This document shows positions 6,188 to 30,000 of a DNA stretch of 40,151 nucleotides, piece by piece. A program made the translations under genes and the position numbers. The notes below the pieces were generated by a model that did not search any database, was not told the origin of the DNA, and saw only the letters and a program-made list of their open reading frames with translations. Source of the DNA: an uncultured Bacteriovoracaceae bacterium (lineage in GTDB: Bacteria > Bdellovibrionota > UBA1018); contig CAYJTX010000001.1 in the NCBI GenBank assembly GCA_964372615.1, positions 1-40,151 of the forward strand, read 5' to 3'. The first letter of the stretch is position 1. Each line of letters starts with the position of its first letter.

Positions 6188-9018
6188 AACGCGCGTGCAG
6201 GGCGGCCGCTCTCGCCGCGCTCGCCGCCGGAATCGGCCTCGGGTGCATGAGCGCCCCGAAGCCGCCGGGAGCGGAAAGCGGAGCCCAGGCCCGCCCCGGA
6301 GTCCTGAGCCGCGAGACCGCGTCCCGTCGGGCTCGCCAGATCGGCAGGCTCAGCTACTCCCTCTGGTTCGGGCTGGATCAGGCGGGAGACCCGTCGCAGG
6401 CGAACTTCACGGGCCGTGCGGCCATTCGCTTTGAGCTGAGGGAAAAGGCCGCATCCGTCGGCGACGAGCTCGCGATCGACTTCGAAGGCGGCGAGATCCG
6501 CGCTCTCACGATCAACGGAGCGGCTCAGCCCGAGGCGTTCGTGCGGGAGCGGTACGACGGCCACCTGCTGAAGCTGCGGCTCGCGGAGCTCGCCCAGGGG
6601 GCGAACCGTCTGGAGATCGCTTACACCCACCCCTTCAGTACGACCGGCAACGGCCTCCATCGCGCCCAGGATCCGGTCGACGCCGCCACCTACGTCTACA
6701 CGAACCTGGAGCCGTTCAGCGCGAACAAGGTCTTTCCGTGCTTCGACCAGCCCGACCTCAAGGCCTCGTACGAGGTCACGGTCGAGGCGCCCCGCGACTG
6801 GATCGTCATCGCCAACACCCAGGAGCGCGAGGTGACGACCCTCAACGGCCGGTCGAGCTGGCAGTTCCCGCCGTCGCCGTCGTTCAGCACCTACGTCTTC
6901 GCACTCATGGCCGGCCCGTTCGCCGTCTGGGAGAGCGAGGCCGACGGGATTCCGCTGCGGCTGCTGGCGCGAGAATCCCTGCGGAAGCACGTCGATTACC
7001 GGGAGTGGTTCGACGTCACGCGCGCCGGCCTCGCGTTCTACAATCTCCAGTTCGGCTATCCCTATCCGTACTCGAAGTACGACCAGATCCTGGTGCCCGA
7101 CTTCAACGCGGGCGCCATGGAAAACGTGGGGGCAGTGACCTTCTCCGAGCGCTTCATCTTCCGCTCGCGTGTCACCGAGGACAAGAGACTCGGCCGCGCG
7201 CTCACGATCCTCCACGAGATGGCGCATATGTGGTTCGGGAATCTGGTGACGATGCGCTGGTGGAACGGCCTCTGGCTCAACGAGAGCTTCGCCACCTACA
7301 TCGCCAGCTGGGCGGCGTCCAAGACGCTCGCAGGCAAGGAGTCCCGCGTCTGGCAGACGTTTTTCGGAACGAAACAGTGGGCTTACTGGGAAGACCAGCT
7401 CGTGACGACCCATCCGATCGAGGTCTCGGTGCCCGACACGGATCACGCGTTCTCCAATTTCGACGGCGTGACCTACGGGAAGGGCGCGGCGAGCCTCAAG
7501 CAGCTGGTCTACCTGCTGGGAGAAGACTCGTTCCGCGAGGGCATGCAGCGGTACTTCGAGCGCTTCGCCCACCGGAACACGACGCTCGCGGATTTCATGA
7601 ACACGCTCGCGGAAGCCTCAGACCGGAAGCTCGGCGACTGGCAGAAGGCCTGGCTGCAGACCCCGGGCGTGACGGGGCTGCAGGCCGAATGGAGCTGTGG
7701 CGACGGGCCGCGAGGCGCGCGCGTCGTCGAGCGTTTCGTCCTCCGTCAGAGACCGCCCCCGGGCGGCGACCTCCGCGCCCATCGGGCGAAGGTCGCGCTT
7801 TACCGCTCGCGGGGCTCCCGCCTCGAGATCCTCGACCCGAAGGCGGACGTGATCGAAGTCGAGTACGCTCGAGCCGAGAATTCGGTTGTCTCCGCCCTCG
7901 GACGACCGTGTCCCGACTTCGTCTTCCCGAATCACGAGGACCACGACTACGCGAAGGTCTCCCTCGACGAACGCTCCCTGAGAACGGCGAAGGCGGGCCT
8001 CTCGCGCGTGGCCGATCCACTGGCTCGCCAGATGGTCTGGCACACGCTCTGGGAGATGGTCGTCGACGCGGAGCTTCGGATCCAGGATTACATCGACATC
8101 GTGATCGCGCAGGCCGGAGAAGAGAAGGACACGCAGGTTGTCTCCCGGATTCTCAGGAACGCCGTCTCGGGAGCAAGCCAGATCCTGCCCGCCGGGCCCC
8201 GGCGGGCCGAGGCGTTCGCGCGGCTGGAGACCTTCGCCCGCGGAAGGCTCACGCGCGCGTCGGCGGGCAGCGACCTCCAGCTCGTCTGGTTCGGGGCGTT
8301 TCTCTCGTCCGTAGAATCCGAGGGCGGCCGTCGCTTCGCGCACGACCTCCTGGAAGGAAAGGGGCGCCTCTCGGGCCTCAAGATCGAGCAGGATCGAAGG
8401 TGGGAGCTACTCAAGGCGCTCTCGCGAGCGGGAGGCCCGGAAATCTTCGAGCTCATCGTGCGGGAGATCCGGCGCGACCCGTCCGACCTGGGTAAGAAGG
8501 AATCTATTTCAGCCGAAGCCCGCGCGCCCGACCCGGTCATCAAGAAGAAGTGGCTCGAGCGCATCTTCAAGAGGCCTCCGGGCGACGCCTTCAAGAACTC
8601 CGACCTGGAAGAGGCGATGGCTGGCTTCAATATTCGCAATCAGGAAGCCTTTACTGAAGAGCTGGCGAAGGCCTACTTCGCCGAGCTTCCCGCGCTCGCG
8701 GCGCGCCCCGGCGAGGACGAGGAGTACCTCTCGGAGCTCGCCTCGGACATGTTCCCGCGTCTGTGCTCGGAAGACACCGTTCGGCAGGCGACCGCCCTGC
8801 TGGCTTCCCACTCAGCGCTGCCGGCGCCAGTTGTGAAGGCCCTCAAGATTTCCCGGCAGGAGGAAGAGCGCTGCGTGAAGGGCCGGCGCCTCGCGATGGG
8901 CGCAGCTCCCGCGCCAGCCGCGCCTATTGCGCCAGCCGCGCCTATTGCGCCCGCTGCGCCTATTGCGCCGATCCCCAAGCCCTCGGCGGCCCCGGCCGCC
9001 TCCTGGAATCCCTGGTGA
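6184..9018 (+). CDS. pepN: M1-family aminopeptidase N, lipoprotein form
   Basis: The ATG at 6184 overlaps the deaminase stop (ATGA). The signal peptide plus lipobox is MKRACRAAALAALAAGIGLGC. The GAMEN exopeptidase motif (NAGAMENVGAVTF) and the zincin HEMAHMWFGNLVTMRWWNGLWLNESFA (HExxH-18-E) are present. A long helical C-terminal domain ends in a Pro/Ala repeat tail. Confidence 0.9.
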   Translation: MKRACRAAALAALAAGIGLGCMSAPKPPGAESGAQARPGVLSRETASRRARQIGRLSYSLWFGLDQAGDPSQANFTGRAAIRFELREKAASVGDELAIDFEGGEIRALTINGAAQPEAFVRERYDGHLLKLRLAELAQGANRLEIAYTHPFSTTGNGLHRAQDPVDAATYVYTNLEPFSANKVFPCFDQPDLKASYEVTVEAPRDWIVIANTQEREVTTLNGRSSWQFPPSPSFSTYVFALMAGPFAVWESEADGIPLRLLARESLRKHVDYREWFDVTRAGLAFYNLQFGYPYPYSKYDQILVPDFNAGAMENVGAVTFSERFIFRSRVTEDKRLGRALTILHEMAHMWFGNLVTMRWWNGLWLNESFATYIASWAASKTLAGKESRVWQTFFGTKQWAYWEDQLVTTHPIEVSVPDTDHAFSNFDGVTYGKGAASLKQLVYLLGEDSFREGMQRYFERFAHRNTTLADFMNTLAEASDRKLGDWQKAWLQTPGVTGLQAEWSCGDGPRGARVVERFVLRQRPPPGGDLRAHRAKVALYRSRGSRLEILDPKADVIEVEYARAENSVVSALGRPCPDFVFPNHEDHDYAKVSLDERSLRTAKAGLSRVADPLARQMVWHTLWEMVVDAELRIQDYIDIVIAQAGEEKDTQVVSRILRNAVSGASQILPAGPRRAEAFARLETFARGRLTRASAGSDLQLVWFGAFLSSVESEGGRRFAHDLLEGKGRLSGLKIEQDRRWELLKALSRAGGPEIFELIVREIRRDPSDLGKKESISAEARAPDPVIKKKWLERIFKRPPGDAFKNSDLEEAMAGFNIRNQEAFTEELAKAYFAELPALAARPGEDEEYLSELASDMFPRLCSEDTVRQATALLASHSALPAPVVKALKISRQEEERCVKGRRLAMGAAPAPAAPIAPAAPIAPAAPIAPIPKPSAAPAASWNPW
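8911..8970 (+). repeat. 18-bp tandem repeat (about 3.3 copies) inside the pepN 3' end, encoding (APAAPI)n
   Basis: The units are GCGCCAGCCGCGCCTATT x2, then GCGCCCGCTGCGCCTATT, then a partial GCGCCG. They translate to APAAPIAPAAPIAPAAPIAP. Confidence 0.85.
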
Positions 9019-19864: not shown

Positions 19865-20815
19865 ATGCGCGTAGCCGTCCTGGTCCTCGGAGCATTGACA
19901 GCCGCGGTCCCCGCAGCGGCCGAGTTCCGCAATCCATCGGCCGTCCGCGCCACCCAGGAAGAGCTCTCGAGGCTTCTGCTGGAAACTCAGTCCCTACCCT
20001 ATGCGGGAAAGCTGGACCGTGTCTCCGCCCACTTCCTGGGCCGCGACTACAAGCTGGAGGCTCTCGGCGAAGGAGAGGGCGGAAAGTACGACCGCGACCC
20101 CCTCTACCGCGTCGACGCGTTTGACTGCACGACTTACGTCGAGACGGTCATGGCGCTCGCGATGTCAGCCGACTTTCCAGCCTTCGAGAGTAATCTCCTC
20201 CGCATCCGGTACCTTCACGCCGAGGCGTCCTTCACCACCCGCAACCATTTTCCCGAGATCGACTGGACCCCGAACAACTCAGCCCAGGGCTTTCTTCGCG
20301 ACGTGACAAGCGATGTCGCAGGCGTTGACGGAGCCCACTCAGTCACGAAGATCTTCGACAAGCGCGGCTGGTATCTCAAGATGCCGCTGGAGCGGGTCAA
20401 CGTCCCGGGCCTGGATCCGACCGCCCGCGACCGGCTCCTGGTCGAGCTGCGCAGCGAGGGCGCCCGCTTTGACACGCGCGAGGCGACCGTGCCCTACGTG
20501 CACCTGGATTCCTTTTTCCCGACGGACCCTCAGACGGGCGAGCGGCGCCCGAACGCGGAGCTCTTCGCCCGAGTCGCCTCCGGCACGGTCATGAACGTCG
20601 TGCGGCCCGACTGGAACGTCGACGATGAACTCGGCACGCCTCTCGTCGTCTCGCACCAGGGACTGATCCTTCGCCTGGCCGGCCGGCTCGTGGTGCGCCA
20701 CGCGTCCAGCGGGGACGCCAGGCAGGTGGTCGAAGCGGACCTCACGGACTTCCTGCGCCGCCACCTCGCCCACCCAACCGTGCGCGGCGTGCAGCTCCTG
20801 CTGCTGACTCCCTAG
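19865..20815 (+). CDS. Exported DUF1460-like (amidase-like) protein
   Basis: The SD is AAGGAGGAGTC-ATG. The signal peptide is MRVAVLVLGALTAAVPAAAE. The segment FLGRDYKLEALGEG...VDAFDCTTYVETVMALA matches my recollection of the DUF1460 / N-acetylmuramoyl-L-alanine amidase-like signature. Recollection only. Confidence 0.5.
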   Translation: MRVAVLVLGALTAAVPAAAEFRNPSAVRATQEELSRLLLETQSLPYAGKLDRVSAHFLGRDYKLEALGEGEGGKYDRDPLYRVDAFDCTTYVETVMALAMSADFPAFESNLLRIRYLHAEASFTTRNHFPEIDWTPNNSAQGFLRDVTSDVAGVDGAHSVTKIFDKRGWYLKMPLERVNVPGLDPTARDRLLVELRSEGARFDTREATVPYVHLDSFFPTDPQTGERRPNAELFARVASGTVMNVVRPDWNVDDELGTPLVVSHQGLILRLAGRLVVRHASSGDARQVVEADLTDFLRRHLAHPTVRGVQLLLLTP

Positions 20816-21355: not shown

Positions 21356-22219
21356 TCAGGGGCAGGCAGACGTCAAGTAGTACTGCTTGAGCGCGTCGTA
21401 GTTCTGCTGGATTTCGGAAGCGGTCAACACCAGATTGTAAACCGCGACCCAGCCGATCGAGCCGCTGAACAGCCCGTCCCCGTTGATTCCGCGCCCGATC
21501 CGACCGGTATTCACCGTGAAGTCGGGAGAGAGCGAAGACGAACCGCCCGACGACGCTCCCTCGAGATAGTGCTGAAACGTGCCAGCGCTGTTCACGATCG
21601 TCACGTGGTGCCAGGTCCCGTCGGCGACGGTCGCCGCCGAGCTCGGGCCGCCGGTGCCGCTCAGGTCCGTGTTCAGCAAGTTGGACGTATGGACCCGGAA
21701 GTACACGCCCTGGTTCGTGGTGTCCCACTTGCCCCACGACGCAATCGTCTTGTCGGTCCCGGTGACCGAGGTCTTGATCCACGCCTGCGCGGTGAAGGAT
21801 CCGGTTCCGAGCGTGGGGGCCGCCCCGAGCTGAACATGGTCGTCGGTTCCGTCGAAATCCAGGCGAAAGGGGTCGGACGGAACACCTGTCCCGTTCCAGC
21901 CGGAGGAGCTGCCGCAGGACGAGAACGAGGTCAGCGTCCCCGAGTTGCCGGTGGAGGAAAGGTCGGTCCAGCTCGTCTGAGAGCAGCCGCTCCCGGCGTT
22001 CGTGCTGCCGGTATTCCTCGGCGCGTCCAGGTGAAGCACGAGTCCCGTCGTGACGACCGCCGGCGCGTAACCGCAGCCGGCCGCCTGCCCGCAGGCGCAG
22101 ACACCCGACGCCTCGCTCGCGCCGGCCCCTGGGCTCGAGCCGGCGAGCTTTCCGCAGCCGGCGCCGGCCAGCGCGATCGACAAGATCCACGTGAGAAGTC
22201 TCGGGTCGGCTTGGCGCAC
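21356..22219 (-). CDS. LamG (concanavalin A-like lectin, Laminin_G_3-type) domain lipoprotein
   Basis: The likely GTG start at 22219 gives MRQADPRLLTWILSIALAGAGC (lipobox). The LamG_3-type signature is FRLDFDGTDDHVQLG...GSFTAQAWIK...DGTWHHVTIV...GRIGRG...FSGSIGWVAVYNLVLTASEIQQNY. Confidence 0.7.
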   Translation of the reverse strand: MRQADPRLLTWILSIALAGAGCGKLAGSSPGAGASEASGVCACGQAAGCGYAPAVVTTGLVLHLDAPRNTGSTNAGSGCSQTSWTDLSSTGNSGTLTSFSSCGSSSGWNGTGVPSDPFRLDFDGTDDHVQLGAAPTLGTGSFTAQAWIKTSVTGTDKTIASWGKWDTTNQGVYFRVHTSNLLNTDLSGTGGPSSAATVADGTWHHVTIVNSAGTFQHYLEGASSGGSSSLSPDFTVNTGRIGRGINGDGLFSGSIGWVAVYNLVLTASEIQQNYDALKQYYLTSACP

Positions 22220-22277
22220 GCGCTCATGGTAGGGTCCGCAATTGGCCTTTGCAATAATCCGATCTAGACTTCTTCCT

Positions 22278-22856
22278 ATGCGCCTCCGGACTCTTCTGCC
22301 CGCGATCGCCGCCCTGTACTTCCCGGCCGCCACCGCCGCCGGTCTGGGACTGCACCTGGGCGCCGAGGGGGGTTGGGGCCAGTCGGCCAACGGCAGCGGA
22401 GGCATCCCCACCCGCGCCTTGAGCACCTATTCCGCTTACGCTGCGCCCGGGCTCAGGCTCGGCAACTTCTTTGTCGGTGCGTTCGGCGAATACTTCATCG
22501 CCGAGCAGCTCACGGAGCCGGCCGAGGTAGGCAATCAAAACCTGCGCGGCTCAGGTTACCTTGCAGGACCCGCGCTCGGAACCCGCTGGCAGCGCGTGTC
22601 GCTGCTTGCAGGCGCCCCCCTCCTCGGCCGCCATGCCTTCCGACTGGGCGATGCCTCGGGCAACGTGAACGCCTTCGAAAAGCCGCTCGGCGCCCGGATC
22701 ACCGTGGGCTACGCGGTCTACTGGCGGGCGCACCTGACCCTGTCCGCCGAGTGGATTGCCTTCCGGAGCCAGTCGCTGGGCGCGTCCACGATCGACGTTT
22801 CGGGCGACCCGCTCCGTCGCTATTCGGCCCGGCTGGGACTGGCGCTCGTGCTCTAG
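22278..22856 (+). CDS. Putative small outer-membrane beta-barrel protein
   Basis: The signal peptide is MRLRTLLPAIAALYFPAATAAG. Amphipathic strands alternate (GNFFVGAFGEYFIAE, RITVGYAVYWRAHLTLSAEWIAF, YSARLGLALVL). Confidence 0.45.
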   Translation: MRLRTLLPAIAALYFPAATAAGLGLHLGAEGGWGQSANGSGGIPTRALSTYSAYAAPGLRLGNFFVGAFGEYFIAEQLTEPAEVGNQNLRGSGYLAGPALGTRWQRVSLLAGAPLLGRHAFRLGDASGNVNAFEKPLGARITVGYAVYWRAHLTLSAEWIAFRSQSLGASTIDVSGDPLRRYSARLGLALVL

Positions 22857-22884: not shown

Positions 22885-24942
22885 CTACTCGCGGATCGCG
22901 CCTGCGATCGCCGACCGCTCGGCGCTCGAGAGCGCCTTCGGCGCCAGGCGGAACACCCACTCCGGCATGAAGATCTTGTAGTAGTTGCCGTCCAGCGCAC
23001 GCGTGTCGCGGTTGGTCGGCCGCACGGCGCGGTTGCCGCCGGTGCCCACCCACCCCTTCGTCTGGACCGGCAGGTCCAGGCGCGCGATCGACGTCAGCTT
23101 ATCGGAGTAGCTTGTCCGGGCGGTCATGCCCGAGTCCGCTCTCAGCCCCGCGTCCTTGAGCTCCTTAAGCGCTCCGGACCAGCTGCTCTCGAAGCCGCTG
23201 GCGCCGGGGGCGCTCATCTTCACGACCCTCACGCTGCCCAGCTCCAGGGCGTCGACGGCCGCCTGGGCGACCGGTCCGACCGCGAGCACGGCCTCGGTCT
23301 TACCTTCGGCCAGCACGCGCTTGACGATCTCCTGGCGAACCTTCTTCACCTGAGCGTTGAGGGCGATGTCCCTCACCTTTTCCTCGCTGAGGTCCGACGT
23401 GTCGACCGGAAGAGTCCGGAGAATCGCGTAAGAGGCGCTCAGACCCGCCTGGTTCAGGAACGTCTGCAGGCGCTGTCCGCCCGCGCCGGTGAGGGCGCGG
23501 CCGGTGAAGATGTCGTCGACCGACTCCTGGTCGGCCACGACGAGCAGCCGGGCCTTGTCGAGCCGGCCGCGGTATACCTGGGTGGTCCCGAAAGACTCGT
23601 GCTGGGTCACGCCCAGAGTCTCGAACTTCGGGTACGCGAAGCCGCGCTCGCCGCCCATGAGGACCTTGGCGAACTTGCCGGGGCCTTCGTCATACTCGGT
23701 GGCGTTCTTGCGGGGCGCTTCCCACTCGAGGTCGCCCGCGGGCATTTCCGGGATCGACGTGGTCGCGTCGCGGACCGCGGCATAGCTGAGCGGCACGCGC
23801 TGAGGGGCTTCGGGAGTGCCGCAGTCGGCGTTGTAGCAGCCGTCGGCGGAGAACACCTGGATGCTCTTCTGGTCGTCCTTGCGGTTGGACGAAGTCCCGC
23901 CGCGGCCGAGACGCCACATCGTGCCGAACGCGAAGTCGCGGTACGGAATGGCCGAGCTGGCGTAGTTGTAAGGCTTGCTCAGGTCGCGTCGGGCGCCCGT
24001 GTCGGCTGGCAGCCAGCCGTCGGTCCGGGCCCACTCGGCCACCTTCTTCGCCGCGTCGGCGAACGCCTTGCGGAGCGCGGCTCCGGCGGCGTCGCCGCCG
24101 TTGCGGGGGCTCGCGGCGCCCGGGTGCGGAACGGACAGCACGCGCACCTTGCGGCCGAGCACGGTCGCGTCGCAGCTGGTGCCGATCGAGCGGCACTCGC
24201 CGCCCTTGTGGCGAATCCAGGCGCGGAGCGAGTCCTGCGCGGCGCCGCCCACGGCGATCACGAGTGCCAGGGTGTTCTTGTTCTGCTCGAGCATGTAGTC
24301 GAACATCTCATGGCGATGCTTCACGACCGGGCTGCCTTCGGCCTGGGCCAGCCAGCAAAGCGGGGCCGGTGTGGCGCCCGAGCACACGCCCGGAAGCACG
24401 CTGTTCGTGTGCTCGCGGATCGCGTCGCGGTCGTCTTCGAAGCTCGTGTACTGTCCGTTGATCGTATAAACGAACGTATTCATGAAGAGGTAGCTCTGGG
24501 TGATGCCCAGGTGCTTCAGGAAGGCCTGCATCTTGGCGCCCGTGCCGCCTGTAAAGGAGCGGTTGGAGACCGACTCGTCCTGCGCGCCTTCCTGGCCGAT
24601 CACGAAGACCTTCACCGAGTTCGGCGTCAGCCGTCCGCGGTAGAACATGGGGCCGAAGGTCCAGCGGTACTTCTCGTCGCGATTCGGCGTGCCGCCCAGC
24701 ACTTCGATGCCGATCTTGCGGTAATTCGGGGTCGCGGCGAAGAGCGACGCCCAGCGGGAGCTCTTCGGCGGGCCCGGATCGTACTCGTAGGGCTGGCCGC
24801 GGTCGCGAAGCGCGGTCCCGCTGACCTCGCCGGTGTCTTCGTCATCGGCGAAAACACTTTGGGGAAGCGTGGGAGCCGCGAGCGAGATCAGCATCGCGGG
24901 AAGGAGGGAAAACCTGGCCGTACGATTCATCGGGAACTTCAT
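22885..24942 (-). CDS. Exported protein with two tandem uracil-DNA-glycosylase-superfamily (family 4/5-like) domains
   Basis: The ATG at 24942 has GGAGAA 9 nt upstream. The signal peptide is MKFPMNRTARFSLLPAMLISLAAPTLPQSVFA. Domain 1 is VFVIGQEGAQDE..NRSFTGGTGAKMQAFLKHLGITQSYLFMNTFV...AVGGAAQ...VPHPGAASPRN. Family-4 UDGs have GEAPG..E..G.PFvG.aG.lL...L...Gl....yitN.v...HPS/A. Domain 2 is LLVVADQESVDD..GRALTGAGGQRLQTFLNQAGLSASYAILRT...AVGPVAQ. Confidence 0.6.
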   Translation of the reverse strand: MKFPMNRTARFSLLPAMLISLAAPTLPQSVFADDEDTGEVSGTALRDRGQPYEYDPGPPKSSRWASLFAATPNYRKIGIEVLGGTPNRDEKYRWTFGPMFYRGRLTPNSVKVFVIGQEGAQDESVSNRSFTGGTGAKMQAFLKHLGITQSYLFMNTFVYTINGQYTSFEDDRDAIREHTNSVLPGVCSGATPAPLCWLAQAEGSPVVKHRHEMFDYMLEQNKNTLALVIAVGGAAQDSLRAWIRHKGGECRSIGTSCDATVLGRKVRVLSVPHPGAASPRNGGDAAGAALRKAFADAAKKVAEWARTDGWLPADTGARRDLSKPYNYASSAIPYRDFAFGTMWRLGRGGTSSNRKDDQKSIQVFSADGCYNADCGTPEAPQRVPLSYAAVRDATTSIPEMPAGDLEWEAPRKNATEYDEGPGKFAKVLMGGERGFAYPKFETLGVTQHESFGTTQVYRGRLDKARLLVVADQESVDDIFTGRALTGAGGQRLQTFLNQAGLSASYAILRTLPVDTSDLSEEKVRDIALNAQVKKVRQEIVKRVLAEGKTEAVLAVGPVAQAAVDALELGSVRVVKMSAPGASGFESSWSGALKELKDAGLRADSGMTARTSYSDKLTSIARLDLPVQTKGWVGTGGNRAVRPTNRDTRALDGNYYKIFMPEWVFRLAPKALSSAERSAIAGAIRE

Positions 24943-25033
24943 GGGGTCACTTCTCCGTTACATGCGAGCCTTCGGCTCGACATAGTTCGACGCGAGGGAG
25001 TCTCACGCCAGATTCACAGCAACCGAAAGGGAA

Positions 25034-25070
25034 CGTCACAAGCCGGCGGACAGTACTCCAGCTTGTGACG
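25034..25070. promoter_or_regulatory. 10-bp perfect inverted repeat in the divergent intergenic region (candidate operator)
   Basis: The repeat is CGTCACAAGC-N17-GCTTGTGACG. It lies between the divergent starts at 24942 (-) and 25277 (+). Confidence 0.35.
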
Positions 25071-25188
25071 CGCCGCAACTTAAAATTCCCGTGCAATGCA
25101 GTATAGTTTTCCTGCCCCTTCGACCCGATTTGTTTCAGGGAGTTACCTCTTTACACGGATTCGCCTGAAACATTATTGACGCATTGAG

Positions 25189-25217
25189 TCGACAACTCGT
25201 CCGGAGTCGTCTATAAG
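25189..25217 (+). promoter_or_regulatory. Candidate sigma70-type promoter for the amidohydrolase gene
   Basis: TCGACA-17 nt-TATAAG lies about 60 nt upstream of the ATG at 25277. This is a by-eye match only. Confidence 0.25.
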
Positions 25218-25276
25218 CCACCACCGTGACGGTACTCTGGTCGGCTCCCTCAACCTCCCTCAGAGGCGGAAACACA

Positions 25277-27361
25277 ATGAAGCTCATTTCTCGGAAACTC
25301 GGTGCAGGTCTTTCTCTGGCGGCGTTCCTGGCCGCACAACTCACGGCTTTCGCCCCCTCGGCCCTGGCTGATGTCGGGCCCAGGCGCTGGGTGCTCGGCG
25401 GCTACCTGCCGTCTGCGCCGACCCAGAAGGTCTACGTGACGATCGAAGGCAAGAGGATCAAGTCCGTCGACCGAGCGGCGCCCGCCTCGGGCACCACGCT
25501 CGTCGACACGAACGACCTCATCTTCCCGGGCCTCGTCGACATGCACAGCCACGTGAAATACAATATCCTGCCCCTCTGGGACCTGGCCCTCGGCCAGTTC
25601 ACGAACCGCTTCGAGTGGCGCCAGAAGTTCGCGGCATATAAGGACGCCGTGAGCTTCAACATGAAGCCCATCAAGGGCGACACGGTCTGCGCGGCCGTGC
25701 GCTGGGCGGAAGTGAAGGCCCTTACCGGCGGCGTGACCGCCATCCAGGGCATCGGCGGCGACGCCAAGTGCGCCAAGGACTTCGGTATCCACAACCTCGA
25801 GATCCCAGGCGAGTTCGAGAACCGCCAGAAGATCCGCGGCATGACCGACATGATCATGCCCGGGCTGATCGGCTCGGTCTTCGAACCCATGATCGCCCCC
25901 CACATGCGCGGAGCCGTGACCTACGAACAAGCCTACGGACGCATGCTCGAGGAGCAGGGCGTGACGGACTGGGTGGAGTCGTTCAAGAGCAAGTCGCACA
26001 CCGTCAAGAACGGCATCGACCTCATGATCGGAAAGACCGTGAACGTCTCGGGCGACACGGTCGCCGCGTTCGACGGCGTGAAGGGCAACCTCGCGACGCT
26101 CCTCGCGGCCGCCCCTTTCAACCTCAACGAGAAGGCCATCGACAAGCAGATCGAAAACATGAAGATATGGCTCTTCGGCAAGGCCGGAGCCCCGGGCTTC
26201 CTGCGCGCCGCCCAGACGGACGCGAAGGCCTACGAGTTCCTCTCCAAGGGCGGCGTCCTCACGGTCGCAAGCTCCGTTCGCCGCTACATCGGCATGTTCG
26301 AGGACTCGGTCCGCAAGAGCGCGCTCGAGTACTTCGCCCAGCCCGACAAGCTCGCGATCGTCGCTCACCTCTCCGAGGGGATGCGCACGGACGCCTACAA
26401 CAAGGCCGAGTTCCAGTACGCGAAGAAGTACGGCCTGGTGCAAGACGGCCTCGTGATCATCCACGGCGTCGGAATGGACGCCGCGGACCTCCGCGAAGCC
26501 AAGCGCCAGAACGTGTCAGTCGTCTGGTCGCCGTTCTCGAACCTGCTGCTCTACGGCGAGACGCTCGACGTCGCGGCCGCCAAGACCGCGGGCGTGAACC
26601 TGGCCATCGGAGCCGACTGGACGCCGACCGGCAGCAAGACCCTGCTCGACGAGCTCGGCCTCGCCAAGCGCTACCTCAAGAAGAAGAACATCCGCGGCAT
26701 CACCGACCAGAACCTGGTCGAGATGGCCACGGTCAACGCGGCCAAGGCGCTCAAGCGCGAGAGCGTGATCGGCCGGGTGGCCGAGAACTTCCAGGCCGAC
26801 CTCATGCTCGTGAAGAAGAAGGCCGGCAAGAACGCCTACACCACGCTCGTCACGGCGACTCAGGGCGAAGTGACCCTCACCGTCGTGCAGGGCGAGCCCC
26901 TCTACGGCGACAAGGCCACGATCGAGAGCGTCGCGGCCTCCTTCGGCGACTCGCGCCGGCCCGAGACGCTTCCGCGCGGAGCGGGCGCCTCGAGCTGCCG
27001 GTTCCAGAAGGCGATCCGCCTGCCGTTCAACAGCGATTATGACGAGTCGCTGGGCAGCCGCCTCGACCTGCTCACGGTCGCCGGCATCCAATCCGAGCTC
27101 GAGACGAAGATGGGCGCCTACGCCGACGACGTCCGGACCCGCGGCAACCCGCGCGAGATCCGGAACCTCGCGACGCTGGACACCCTCTACACCTGCCAGG
27201 ACAGCAAGTACGCCTCGCGCTTCGCGGAGTTCATCGAGAAGGAAATCGACGAGAACGCCGCCAACCGCGCGACCGTTCGCACGGACGCCCGGCTCTTCAG
27301 TACGTGGAGCCCGGTCACCGGCAGCGTCGAAGAGGAAGGCGACGGGCACGAGAACGAGTAG
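25277..27361 (+). CDS. Exported metal-dependent amidohydrolase-superfamily protein (694 aa)
   Basis: The signal peptide is MKLISRKLGAGLSLAAFLAAQLTAFAPSALA. The HxH metal motif is GLVDMHSHV. Later ligand-like positions are VAHLSEG, VIIHGVG and LAIGADWT. A long C-terminal extension follows. Confidence 0.7.
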   Translation: MKLISRKLGAGLSLAAFLAAQLTAFAPSALADVGPRRWVLGGYLPSAPTQKVYVTIEGKRIKSVDRAAPASGTTLVDTNDLIFPGLVDMHSHVKYNILPLWDLALGQFTNRFEWRQKFAAYKDAVSFNMKPIKGDTVCAAVRWAEVKALTGGVTAIQGIGGDAKCAKDFGIHNLEIPGEFENRQKIRGMTDMIMPGLIGSVFEPMIAPHMRGAVTYEQAYGRMLEEQGVTDWVESFKSKSHTVKNGIDLMIGKTVNVSGDTVAAFDGVKGNLATLLAAAPFNLNEKAIDKQIENMKIWLFGKAGAPGFLRAAQTDAKAYEFLSKGGVLTVASSVRRYIGMFEDSVRKSALEYFAQPDKLAIVAHLSEGMRTDAYNKAEFQYAKKYGLVQDGLVIIHGVGMDAADLREAKRQNVSVVWSPFSNLLLYGETLDVAAAKTAGVNLAIGADWTPTGSKTLLDELGLAKRYLKKKNIRGITDQNLVEMATVNAAKALKRESVIGRVAENFQADLMLVKKKAGKNAYTTLVTATQGEVTLTVVQGEPLYGDKATIESVAASFGDSRRPETLPRGAGASSCRFQKAIRLPFNSDYDESLGSRLDLLTVAGIQSELETKMGAYADDVRTRGNPREIRNLATLDTLYTCQDSKYASRFAEFIEKEIDENAANRATVRTDARLFSTWSPVTGSVEEEGDGHENE

Positions 27362-27561: not shown

Positions 27562-30000
27562 ATGAAACGGTCTGGGCAGATTTTGGCTTCAGTGAGTATT
27601 GCCGGCGCGCTTGCCGCGGTCGCGGCCTGCGGACAAAACCCCCACCTCCTTCAGGATCCGGCGGCCCTCGAGGAGGCGCAGCAGGGATCCATTCCGAGAG
27701 GGAGCGAAATTCCTCCCGTCCGCATCCCCGAACCAGCGCCAGGCCCCGATCAGCCCGCGCCCGTCCCCGCCCCGACCGGCGAAACTCCCGCGAGCGAACC
27801 GCGCGTGATCGTCTCGCCCGTCTACATCGACGTTCCGGGCCCGACGATCATCGTCTACCAGCCGTCTCCCGTTCCCATCGAAGTTCCAGTCATCGTGACC
27901 GTTCCCGGACCCGGCGTCACCGGCCCGACCGGCCCGACCGGCGCGTCGGCCGCTCCGGCCATCGACGGAACCGACGGCCAGGTCGGCGCGACAGGCCTGG
28001 CCTGCGCCGACGACGAGACCGCGTACTACGAGGCGAGCGCCCGCGTGCGCCCTCTCTACACGGATGAAGCGGCCGCCATCGTACTCCCGTACCGGACGAC
28101 GCACGATCGGCGTGACGTTCCCTCCAGTCGCCGCAAGCGCCTCTACACGCGCCCGCTCGGAGAACTCCGCAAGATGGACTCGACCGACAACAAGTTCGGC
28201 CTCGTGACGGACGCCTCCGGCCAGAACCGCTATCCCTGGGTCCAGAACTCCCAGGTGCCGTTCGCGGTCGAGCTGACAGACATCCCCCCGCACGAGACGC
28301 TCGTGAACAACGGGCTCGAGTACATGGACCTCGCCATCGAGCTCACGAAAGTCGGCAAGGAGCGCAATTATCTCGAAACCGAGATCCTCTGCCTCCTGAA
28401 CGAGAAGATCTGCTCGGGCTACCGCGTCGGCGAATCTCGCGCAGTGGCACACCGGGACGCGAGCTGGTCGAGCACCTTCAACCCCGACTTCTGGGGCGCG
28501 CGCGGCCCGGCGAATCCGTACTTCGGCGACAACCTCGCCGCCCGCGAGGTCGGACGCGTGAGCGGAGGCGACAAGGTGTTCTTCCTGGAAGGGCGCCTGC
28601 CGTTCGCCGAGCTCATCCGCGGATCGGACGTCAGTCACCCGCTCGACCTGATCTACGTCAGCACGCCGCCGGCCGGCGCCGGCTGGATCGAGAAGAAGAT
28701 CCTCTACTTCGCGGTCGGCGACGACACGATCATCGACAGCCTCGACACGAAGCTCGAGATCAAGTTCCGGTACCAGTCGTGCCGGGCCCGAAAGCTGCGC
28801 CACCCCGCGCTTCGCCCAGCGCCCGTCGTGGCACCGCCGGTCGAAGTGCCGCCGGTCGCCGCGCTCGCGCGCGGTCCCGCGTCCGTCAGCCTGCAGACCC
28901 TGCAGCCGACGGCCAACTCGAGCTACGTGCTGACGGAGGACGCCCTCCTGCGCACGGCCCCGATGAATCCGTCGTGGACCGGCCCGAGGCTCCTGCTCGG
29001 CGTGCAGTACAACCTGCTTGACGACGCCCTCGTCGAGCTGAACGCGAAGCGCACGGAACGCACGGCCGTCGTCGTCGACGCGATCCACACGCTCGACATC
29101 TCGGCCGCGGTCTCGGTGCGGCGCCAGCTGACTCTCGCGCTCCTCGCGCCTCTCAACCTCCAGAAGGCGACTGGCAGTGCCGAGCGATTTGGCCTCGGTG
29201 ACTTCCGGGTGCTCACCAAGTGGCGCCTCTCGGACGACGACGCGCTCGTCGCCTGGACCCTGATTCCGGAGGTCCGGCTCCCCACGGGAAGCCGCGAGCT
29301 TCTGCTCTCCAACGGATCCTGGGGAGCGGGGCTGCTCGTGGCCGTGGAACGGGACTTCGGCGACCTGATCGCCTCGGCGAATTTCGGATACCGCCACACG
29401 CCCGGAGCCAGGATGGGTGGAATGGACTTCCGCAACCAGATTCCGCTCGCGCTTGGCGCATACCTGCCTTTCAGCGACACCTGGGCCATGAACGTCGAGG
29501 CCGGCGGAGCCATCAGCTTTCCGATCGACCAGTACAACAATCCCGGTGAGCTCTACCTCGGAGCCCGCCACCAGGCCTCGCGCGAAGTCTCGCTCGTCGC
29601 TGGATTCAGCATCGGAAGTCTGAGTGACCGAGGCAGCGGCGACGTCCGCTTCGTCGCCGGCGTGCGCTTCGCACCCACTCCCGAGCCCGCGCTGCCGGAT
29701 GTGAGACCGGTCGCCCCGGTGGTCGTGGCGCCCATCGCTGCGCCCGTGGTCCAGGATAAAATCCAGTCGCACCGCGCGGCGCCCGTCAAGATCGCGAAAC
29801 AGGCCCCCAAGAAGAAGCTCGGCAAGAAGCGCCAGAAGAAGGCGCTCGCCCTACGAGCGGAGCGGCCGGAGCGTCACGCCCCGATCACCATCCAGATCCA
29901 GAACGTGAACCAGGCTGCGTCGCACTCGGCCGCCGCCCACGCGCCGGACTCAGCCGCGCCCGCGCAGCCCGCTCCAGCTCCTACCTCCGCACTTCGCTAA
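27562..30000 (+). CDS. Large lipoprotein: Pro-rich/collagen-like linker, unknown central domain, C-terminal beta-barrel-like domain, Pro/Lys-rich tail
   Basis: The lipobox is SIAGALAAVAAC. The linker is Pro-rich with GVTGPTGPTG. The C-terminal region carries FGLGDFRVLTKWRL...EVRLPTGS...GYRH..., which resembles the outer-membrane MetA-type (Phenol_MetA_deg-like) beta-barrel signature GlGD...k...lPTG. The terminal tail is KIAKQAPKKKLGKKRQKK. Confidence 0.6.
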   Translation: MKRSGQILASVSIAGALAAVAACGQNPHLLQDPAALEEAQQGSIPRGSEIPPVRIPEPAPGPDQPAPVPAPTGETPASEPRVIVSPVYIDVPGPTIIVYQPSPVPIEVPVIVTVPGPGVTGPTGPTGASAAPAIDGTDGQVGATGLACADDETAYYEASARVRPLYTDEAAAIVLPYRTTHDRRDVPSSRRKRLYTRPLGELRKMDSTDNKFGLVTDASGQNRYPWVQNSQVPFAVELTDIPPHETLVNNGLEYMDLAIELTKVGKERNYLETEILCLLNEKICSGYRVGESRAVAHRDASWSSTFNPDFWGARGPANPYFGDNLAAREVGRVSGGDKVFFLEGRLPFAELIRGSDVSHPLDLIYVSTPPAGAGWIEKKILYFAVGDDTIIDSLDTKLEIKFRYQSCRARKLRHPALRPAPVVAPPVEVPPVAALARGPASVSLQTLQPTANSSYVLTEDALLRTAPMNPSWTGPRLLLGVQYNLLDDALVELNAKRTERTAVVVDAIHTLDISAAVSVRRQLTLALLAPLNLQKATGSAERFGLGDFRVLTKWRLSDDDALVAWTLIPEVRLPTGSRELLLSNGSWGAGLLVAVERDFGDLIASANFGYRHTPGARMGGMDFRNQIPLALGAYLPFSDTWAMNVEAGGAISFPIDQYNNPGELYLGARHQASREVSLVAGFSIGSLSDRGSGDVRFVAGVRFAPTPEPALPDVRPVAPVVVAPIAAPVVQDKIQSHRAAPVKIAKQAPKKKLGKKRQKKALALRAERPERHAPITIQIQNVNQAASHSAAAHAPDSAAPAQPAPAPTSALR

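Follow-up and report, generated by a model that had tools for sequence, protein, structure and literature searches.

We found, in a 40,151-nucleotide stretch of DNA from an uncultured Bacteriovoracaceae bacterium (contig CAYJTX010000001.1; the whole stretch is called the window below), a gene whose 685-amino-acid product is predicted to be a Sec-exported protein made of two complete uracil-DNA glycosylase (UDG)-fold units of the BdiUng class, fused head to tail. Enzymes with this fold are textbook cytoplasmic or nuclear genome-maintenance proteins. Comparison of homologous loci indicates that the ancestral form is cytoplasmic and shares its operon with a deaminase-type amidohydrolase and, in most cases, an S41 peptidase, and that export signals were gained by one monophyletic Bdellovibrionota/Oligoflexia clade, in which the window is included. 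As a function we propose, with moderate confidence, that the protein is an exported, pseudo-dimeric BdiUng-type glycosylase which, together with a co-exported deaminase, would act on foreign nucleic acid in a predator by base excision. Were a duplicated UDG indeed exported together with a deaminase, the biology of the UDG fold would reach into the extracytoplasmic space.

Two BdiUng-type units in one chain

Both halves of the protein, which is identical to P0001 of the NCBI-derived collection that we used, belong to the UDG superfamily. The Pfam profile PF03167 matches the full-length sequence in two stretches with 39 bits (cut-off 24.3, E=1e-9); on their own, domain 1 scores 27 bits and domain 2 15.5 bits, which is under the cut-off. 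The two domains align with each other across the whole unit by BLASTP (25% identity, E=7e-11), and over 227 columns in a profile-profile comparison with hhalign (99.7% probability, E=2.3e-26). In a phmmer search of PDB sequences, Blr0248/BdiUng (5GN2) was the single significant relative, both of the full-length query (E=2e-16, matched stretch residues 90-165 in domain 1) and of domain 2 searched alone (E=9e-6). A full-length AlphaFold2 model, built with a 118-sequence alignment, reached a mean predicted local distance difference test score (pLDDT) of 90.2 and a predicted template modelling score (pTM) of 0.90, with residues 1-43, the signal peptide and linker, below a pLDDT of 50; a model of domain 2 only reached a pLDDT of 87.3. 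Foldseek placed 5gn2_A first among the PDB matches of the full-length model (E=3.6e-13), followed by UdgX, family-4 UDGs, SMUG1 and MUG, and the top 44 matches were all UDG-superfamily chains. For the domain-2-only model, 5gn2_A was again first (E=6.2e-16, TM 0.71/0.75, 284 columns) and the entire BdiUng chain was superposed. Each half contains the four-stranded parallel sheet with helices of the superfamily; domain 1 consists of an N-terminal RG..EYDPGP..PNYR segment, a four-stranded alpha/beta/alpha core and a C-terminal beta-hairpin.

A sequence-only reading of this DNA had already described two tandem UDG-superfamily domains, and all motif strings that it quoted are present in the protein: VFVIGQEGAQDE (residues 112-123), LLVVADQESVDD (466-477), RSFTGG...NTFV (128-158), RALTGAGG...ILRT (482-510) and VPHPGAASPRN (271-281). 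A lack of any UDG-fold match would have refuted that reading, but both the profile and the structure searches gave such matches. Its assignment of both halves to the family-4/5 layout has to be revised, as motif A, cysteine content and profile scores all make BdiUng the nearest class. We place the protein in this class and not in family 4/5 because the scores of the family-4, family-5 and UdgX profiles fall well short of the respective cut-offs (TIGR00758, 15 bits against 125; NF040953, 14 against 250; TIGR03914, 20 against 190); motif A reads GQEGA instead of GE[AG]PG, and there are no iron-sulfur cluster cysteines. The only cysteine pair kept family-wide is C250/C257 (GGxC...SxC, nt 24172-24195 of the minus strand), which occurs in exported and cytoplasmic members alike and could serve as a structural disulfide, a metal site or a redox switch.

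BdiUng of Bradyrhizobium diazoefficiens was described as a 'new class' of UDG by Chembazhi et al. 2017 (PMC5449639). Its catalysis relies on D57 of motif A (GQDPA) and on H168, while N94 and M92 are pocket-lining residues and A59 makes space for 5-substituted as well as purine bases; the enzyme excises uracil, 5-hydroxymethyluracil (hmU) and xanthine, prefers single-stranded DNA (ssDNA) and is insensitive to Ugi (PMC5449639). It is an obligate homodimer, held together by an N-terminal segment and a C-terminal beta-hairpin (PMC5449639).

Domain 1 retains this active-site anatomy. Its motif A follows the GQDPA pattern: position 3 is acidic and position 5 an alanine, with Asp-to-Glu and Pro-to-Gly variation, and E118 occupies the position of the catalytic D57. 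We counted conservation over 118 family sequences from many phyla: the G, Q, G, Q, D and E of this motif are invariant, Glu stands at position 118 in 114 sequences and Asp in the other 4, and position 120 is Ala in 115. On the base-pocket strand F153 stands at the M92 (stacking) position and N155 at that of the base-reading N94; Y151, N155, T156 and F157 are invariant and F153 is kept in 114 of the 118. The HP(G/S) counterpart of motif B noted in the sequence-only reading is present: H273-P-G, within the string at 271-281, is invariant, and H273 would correspond to the catalytic H168, judging by its position after beta-4 and not by a residue-by-residue alignment. Domain 1 would act as an N-glycosylase with a water-activating Glu118, the base-reading Asn155, a stacking Phe153 and His273, in which the small Ala120 would leave room for substituted or larger bases.

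Domain 2 (ADQES) has neither the GQDPA-type motif A nor the catalytic His and base-reading Asn, and has an invariant set of its own instead. D471 and Q472 are invariant and A470, S474, D476 and D477 are kept in at least 90% of the sequences (consensus ADQ[EQ]S..DD). R509 stands where the base-reading Asn would be and is kept in 117 of 118; Y505 and P512 are invariant, and R482 and D514 vary little or not at all. After beta-4 the 118 sequences have no conserved His, and positions 577-581 are variable. Since these substituted residues are invariant across phyla, domain 2 is a remodelled, constrained pocket rather than a decaying copy. The sequence-only reading, in which GQEGA was a diverged GEAPG and domain 2 degenerate, is corrected on both points: motif A is BdiUng-type, and domain 2 is conserved.

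BdiUng-type interface elements occur in both halves, where the hhalign alignment covers them, and the pTM implies a fixed inter-domain packing. Because BdiUng dimerises through an N-terminal segment and a C-terminal hairpin that are both duplicated here, the fusion most likely fixes the dimer. It would hard-wire the homodimer as a catalytic/non-catalytic pseudo-heterodimer, with domain 2 most likely a substrate-binding or scaffolding half that has a different invariant pocket. Such a pseudo-dimer would be a natural experiment on the question of why BdiUng-type UDGs dimerise.

Export signals and the predicted co-export of the amidohydrolase

Inspection of the N-terminus revealed the n/h/c layout of a Sec signal peptide, with an n-region (MKFPMNRTAR) of charge +3, an h-region of 14 residues and a cleavage site V-F-A/D at -3 to -1 and +1. 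The frame is closed by an in-frame TAA at 24958-24960 of the minus strand, 18 nt 5' of the ATG, and the in-frame ATG, GTG and TTG codons ahead of residue 99 are limited to M1, M5 and M17. M99 itself sits inside the conserved core RG..EYDPGP..PNYR..FRW, so that no other start could drop the signal peptide without also deleting part of this invariant core; a cytoplasmic form made from an internal start codon was therefore rejected. These findings, together with the signals of the orthologues, agree with the sequence-only reading, which had proposed a Sec signal peptide behind a good Shine-Dalgarno sequence and had named an internal Met as the possible true start that would remove it.

The family is large. 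More than 980 clusters at 90% identity match the protein, most of the top 120 at more than 90% coverage, as do 515, 315 and 126 representatives at 50% identity with E<=1e-3, 1e-10 and 1e-30, respectively, and the tandem architecture is present in at least 218 species-level genomes. The best 80 genomic loci (L006-L085) are all from metagenome-assembled genomes (MAGs) and include no cultured isolate; this may be the reason why the family has stayed uncharacterised. By their N-termini the proteins fall into two classes. The 54 cytoplasmic-type proteins have about 583-612 amino acids, start no more than about 8 residues from the RG.PWEYDPGPP core, carry no signal peptide in any locus and come from Acidobacteriota, Chloroflexota, Actinomycetota, Gemmatimonadota, Bacteroidota, Syntrophales, Campylobacterales and Woeseiaceae. 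The 25 exported-type proteins have about 650-770 amino acids, a type-I signal peptide or lipobox in every case, conserved although the signal sequences themselves diverge, and are labelled Bdellovibrionota/Oligoflexia or bear older or uninformative labels such as Deltaproteobacteria, Proteobacteria or 'uncultured bacterium'. The tandem architecture is thus spread over many phyla, and its exported form is restricted to one clade. We found no published description of a tandem or exported UDG in the searchable literature, in line with the sequence-only reading, which knew of no duplicated exported version; the duplication itself, however, is widespread and mostly cytoplasmic.

Clustering of 563 core columns by the unweighted pair group method with arithmetic mean yielded two clean clusters of 68 exported-type and 49 cytoplasmic-type sequences, the one exception being an over-called start. 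Because the exported forms make one clade on these columns, export looks like a single innovation. This clade is also marked by a cysteine pair, C369...C374 (GCYNADC), in the C-terminal hairpin of domain 1: exactly two cysteines are found in that segment in 62 of 68 exported-type versus 0 of 50 cytoplasmic-type sequences. The pair probably forms a disulfide, and it supports export, as the gain of a disulfide is expected in an oxidising compartment. The best matches of the window protein are Bdellovibrionota/Oligoflexales sequences with 49-57% identity, and SdhA of the window is 82% identical to proteins of Bdellovibrionia and Bdellovibrionales MAGs.

The sequence-only reading had missed the partner gene at 25277-27361, which encodes a predicted exported amidohydrolase divergently from the UDG gene. 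This protein matches Pfam Amidohydro_1 with E=2.8e-20, and its closest entries in NCBIfam and the PDB, among which are AtzA, MTA/SAH deaminase, guanine deaminase and 8-oxoguanine deaminase, belong without exception to the deaminases or chlorohydrolases; it stays under every equivalog cut-off, with at most 72 bits versus 294-779. Its orthologues share invariant HxH, HLSE (HxxE), His and Asp residues and the private motifs WSPxSNLLLYG and GSDWxPxGSK. An orthologous amidohydrolase gene lies within 2.1 kb in 49 of the 54 cytoplasmic-type loci, directly 3' and on the same strand in 43, often overlapping, and is present in 14 of the 25 exported-type loci and in locus L001. The export status of the linked partner co-varies with that of the glycosylase with no exceptions: a signal peptide or lipobox was recognised in the partners of all 14 exported-type loci that have one and of the window, and in none of the cytoplasmic-type loci. 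Five Chloroflexia partners flagged by a crude hydrophobicity filter proved to be false positives with a conserved beta-sandwich start and no N-terminal extension.

In the cytoplasmic class, the amidohydrolase reading frame often extends to about 1100-1200 amino acids through a fused S41 peptidase (PF03572, E=1.9e-16). An S41 match, fused or as a separate gene (e.g. in L003), follows downstream in 38 loci, and glycosylase, amidohydrolase and S41 peptidase form a conserved three-hydrolase cluster in non-predatory phyla. Examples of the fusion are L044 (7832-11437), L026, L035, L043, L051, L056, L058, L062, L072, L076 and L077, among others. We detected no S41 module in the window or the Bdellovibrionota loci within the available flanks, and no fusion of a UDG unit with an amidohydrolase (a 'Rosetta stone') among the long family members, which carry helix-hairpin-helix (HhH) or lamin-tail domains (LTD) instead. 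Between its HxH and HxxE motifs the partner has an insertion of about 170 amino acids, which it has in common with its closest exported orthologues (L006 and L037) and which is partial in L001 and not found in the cytoplasmic orthologues. One Bdellovibrionota subgroup has an open reading frame (ORF) of about 282 amino acids between the UDG and amidohydrolase genes (L001 10027-10875, L078 about 8141-8968, L081 about 6948-7673); this ORF matches no Pfam or NCBIfam family, and the window lacks a homologue of it.

Table 1. Positions in the window of the tandem UDG gene, its sequence elements and the partner gene
Feature	Position (nt)	Strand	Basis
Whole gene, predicted exported tandem BdiUng-type UDG-fold protein, 685 aa	22885..24942	-	ORF list; stop codon 22885-22887
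Shine-Dalgarno-like GGAGA, 9 nt 5' of ATG	24952..24956	-	read from sequence
Predicted Sec (SPase I type) signal peptide, residues 1-32, MKFPMNRTAR-FSLLPAMLISLAAP-TLPQSVFA/DD	24847..24942	-	n/h/c layout read from sequence
Acidic disordered linker, mature N-terminus, residues 33-44, DDEDTGEVSGTA	24811..24846	-	pLDDT <50; not kept in homologues
Domain 1, residues 45-399, complete BdiUng-like unit, catalytic residues intact	23746..24810	-	phmmer, Foldseek, invariant columns
Domain 1 motif A, G116-Q-E-G-A-Q-D-E123 = BdiUng G55-Q-D57-P-A59-Q-H-E62	24574..24597	-	alignment to 5gn2
Domain 1 base-pocket strand, Y151-L-F153-M-N155-T-F157 = BdiUng YVMVN 90-94	24472..24492	-	alignment to 5gn2
Domain 1 H273-P-G, proposed counterpart of BdiUng catalytic H168	24118..24126	-	invariant 118/118
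Exported-clade-specific Cys pair C369...C374 (GCYNADC), domain 1 C-terminal hairpin	23821..23838	-	clade counts
Domain 2, residues 400-685, second complete BdiUng-like unit, remodelled pocket	22888..23745	-	phmmer, AlphaFold2, Foldseek, hhalign
Domain 2 motif A counterpart, A470-D471-Q472-E-S474-V-D476-D477	23512..23535	-	conservation over 118 sequences
Domain 2 pocket strand, Y505-A-I-L-R509-T-L-P512-V-D514	23401..23430	-	conservation over 118 sequences
Divergent intergenic region, 334 bp, between UDG gene and partner	24943..25276		coordinates
Partner gene, 694-aa predicted exported amidohydrolase, deaminase/chlorohydrolase branch, signal peptide MKLISRKLGAGLSLAAFLAAQLTAFAPSALA	25277..27361	+	Pfam Amidohydro_1

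The intergenic region contains one weak sigma-70-like match (plus strand, 25080-25107), which is not evidence of function. The neighbourhood consists of housekeeping and envelope genes, and the neighbours at 19865-20815 (+), 21356-22426 (-), 22242-22856 (+) and 27562-30000 (+) are rich in predicted envelope or secreted proteins. They include an AmiA-like amidase and an 812-amino-acid proline-rich protein, each with a signal peptide, and a LamG/ConA-like protein; the proline-rich protein matches no family. A 204-amino-acid ORF, again with no family match, overlaps the LamG ORF by 185 nt, and one of these two ORF calls may therefore be wrong.

Substrate and possible role

The site of action of the glycosylase and its partner would be extracytoplasmic, whether this is the periplasm, the cell surface or the invaded prey. 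Domain 1 would there clip bases from foreign DNA, probably single-stranded or partly degraded, and the amidohydrolase would deaminate the bases or nucleosides involved, a role in nucleic-acid scavenging or degradation rather than in genome repair. DNA is suggested as the substrate of the exported forms because BdiUng, the sole characterised relative, is an ssDNA-preferring glycosylase, and because distant relatives carry DNA-associated modules. The lipoprotein P0281 (L086, 6639-9740) has four ComEA-type HhH repeats N-terminal to its tandem UDG unit and is flanked by other lipoproteins, among them an exported Exo_endo_phos nuclease, while the lipoproteins P0287 (L087, 8001-11447) and P0290, from Myxococcota/Myxococcales, end in one or two C-terminal LTDs. 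LTDs occur as modules in secreted nucleases such as ExeM (PMC6085458) and in loci for the degradation of extracellular DNA (eDNA; PMC8289736), and Bdellovibrio secretes nucleases onto prey DNA (PMC7925074). Locus L086 also encodes a 913-amino-acid cysteine-rich lipoprotein immediately upstream, an SprT-like protein and SbcCD. A further group of distant relatives combines a signal peptide with a motif A of GQD type (FIGQDATH) and a large insertion between the UDG units; it consists of P0313 and about 30 other representatives, 800-900 amino acids long and 27-30% identical.

Several points weigh against base excision from foreign DNA by an exported enzyme pair. Export is a prediction only, and 11 of the 25 exported-type loci show no amidohydrolase in the available flanks. 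The window protein itself has no HhH or LTD module, the fusions cited above coming from Myxococcota-type relatives with only 33-36% identity. The substrates known for deaminases of the amidohydrolase fold are free bases, nucleosides and small molecules and do not include polymeric DNA, nor is it obvious what the S41 peptidase of the ancestral operon would do in DNA degradation; both facts point towards a small-molecule substrate. A BdiUng-like specificity would add little to bulk DNA digestion, given that normal DNA seldom contains uracil, hmU or xanthine. Finally, the lineage was placed by best matches, and the G+C content of the window, about 65% throughout (1-40151), is unusually high for Bdellovibrionota.

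Some of these points lead directly to a second explanation, which is possible but which we do not consider probable: the UDG fold could have been repurposed as an N-glycosidase that acts on nucleosides, nucleotides or nucleoside-peptide conjugates (e.g. peptidyl-nucleoside antibiotics) for catabolism or detoxification. The sequence-only reading had offered both alternatives, extracellular or prey DNA and a repurposed fold with a non-DNA substrate, and they are still the two leading hypotheses. Together with the deaminase-type amidohydrolase and the S41 peptidase it would form a three-step pathway, of which Bdellovibrionota would have moved the first two steps to the periplasm, where prey-derived or environmental nucleosides would be processed. 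As the known deaminases act on small molecules and a part for S41 in DNA breakdown is not obvious, the ancestral cytoplasmic pathway may target a nucleoside or nucleoside-peptide compound. The gene order glycosylase, amidohydrolase and fused or adjacent S41, with an S41 match downstream in 38 loci, fits such a pathway; base-excision repair genes such as an apurinic/apyrimidinic endonuclease are not in these operons, the partner keeps its HxH/HxxE/H/D residues and has nearest relatives that act on free bases, nucleosides and triazines, and the Ala at the 5-substituent gate of domain 1 leaves an enlarged pocket. On the other hand, BdiUng as the closest relative acts on DNA, as does, to our knowledge, every characterised UDG-fold enzyme. 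The HhH and LTD fusions and the exported nuclease beside distant exported members also point to DNA, the basic core, with an isoelectric point of about 9, fits nucleic-acid binding, and no transporter or nucleoside-catabolic genes are consistently linked.

That the protein is a pseudo-enzyme, i.e. an exported DNA-binding, ligand-binding or scaffolding protein such as a binding subunit or chaperone of the amidohydrolase, which has ceased to cleave glycosidic bonds, seems improbable. Domain 2 has indeed lost the catalytic Asp/Glu, Asn and His, domain 1 has Glu where BdiUng and family 1 have Asp, and the tight linkage with the amidohydrolase could reflect a physical complex. The catalytic and pocket positions of domain 1, however, are invariant or nearly so across phyla, as is typical of an active site, with Asp at position 118 in 4 of the 118 sequences, and family 4 and UdgX likewise have a Glu in motif A (GEAPG/GEQPG).

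Two further explanations are very improbable. An ordinary cytoplasmic repair UDG with a mis-called start would be in keeping with the normal location of UDGs and with the lack of a signal peptide in most family members, but is contradicted by the upstream in-frame stop, the Shine-Dalgarno-like sequence and the M1/M5/M17 limit on starts before the core, as well as by the export signals in 25 orthologous loci, the co-exported partner and the cysteine pair of the exported clade. No more credible is a defence or mobile-element-borne glycosylase, like Brig1-type enzymes that excise modified phage bases, although UDG-fold glycosylases have been recruited to phage defence and the enlarged pocket could accept modified bases. 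PADLOC models gave no match for the UDG protein, its partner or the amidohydrolase-S41 fusion, and a defence-system identity was rejected on this basis; a mobile-element origin was likewise rejected, since tblastn found no homologues in 72,556 plasmids and 50,697 phage records. An exported location is moreover incompatible with an attack on injected phage DNA in the cytoplasm, and the genes around the UDG gene are of the housekeeping and envelope kind.

Base excision from foreign nucleic acid, the reading that we prefer, could be one part of a broader picture, which we regard as rather doubtful: the tandem glycosylase and the amidohydrolase, with S41 in the ancestral form, may constitute an unrecognised, widespread hydrolytic pathway, with the UDG fold in the service of catabolism and not of genome maintenance, that predators would have exported to strip bases from prey or environmental DNA. 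The predatory lineages concerned would be the Bdellovibrionota, and the Myxococcota with their HhH/LTD fusions. If true, base excision would be a further route, next to the secreted nucleases, by which extracellular DNA is degraded and nitrogen scavenged. The glycosylase-amidohydrolase-S41 operon, which is found in Actinomycetota, Chloroflexota, Acidobacteriota, Bacteroidota and other phyla, stands for an uncharacterised pathway. For base-editing and sequencing chemistry, DNA glycosylases of broad specificity and new deaminases have practical interest as well.

Comparison with known systems

BdiUng is the best sequence and fold match of both halves of the window protein, with which it has in common a motif A of the same type (GQDPA against GQEGA), the Asn and the His, a small Ala where 5-substituents are gated, the lack of a four-cysteine iron-sulfur site, and the dimer-interface elements, which the window protein has in both halves. 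BdiUng, however, is a 272-amino-acid, single-domain, cytoplasmic homodimer, whereas the window protein has two units in one chain of 685 residues that is predicted to be exported, with Asp57 replaced by Glu, Met92 by Phe and a second unit that has no catalytic residues. The window protein also has a conserved linkage to an amidohydrolase.

Family-4 UDGs (UdgA) and UdgX (1UI0, 1L9G, 4ZBY, 6AIL) share the alpha/beta/alpha UDG fold and appear as second-tier Foldseek matches (E about 1e-4 to 1e-5) and weak NCBIfam matches, but have a GE[AQ]PG motif A and a 4Fe-4S cluster, neither of which is present in the window protein, which reaches 15-20 bits versus the 125-190 of their cut-offs. Family-1 UNG enzymes (E. 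coli Ung, human UNG2) resemble domain 1 in the acidic position 3 of GQ(D/E), the base-reading Asn, the stacking Phe and the His after beta-4. They differ in their HPSPLS Leu-intercalation loop, which the window protein does not have, and in the Tyr that excludes 5-substituted bases, for which the window protein has Ala; sequence similarity is very low, and the window protein is tandem.

The partner keeps the HxH, HxxE, His and Asp signature of amidohydrolase deaminases (guanine/8-oxoguanine and MTA/SAH deaminases, AtzA/TrzN), but is a protein of 694 amino acids with an insertion of about 170 residues and a predicted signal peptide, and its cytoplasmic orthologues are often fused to S41. In its predicted location the glycosylase would resemble secreted nucleases such as Bd0934/Bd3507 of Bdellovibrio (PMC7925074) and ExeM/NucH with LTD and EEP domains (PMC6085458), which are also exported and occur in organisms that digest foreign DNA; the distant tandem-UDG relatives share the LTD with them and adjoin an exported EEP nuclease. 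We found no description of an exported base-excising enzyme in the searchable literature. The secreted nucleases have unrelated folds and cleave phosphodiester bonds, and a base-excising enzyme would be a new type in the arsenal that predators direct at prey DNA and eDNA, which is now thought to consist of phosphodiesterases.

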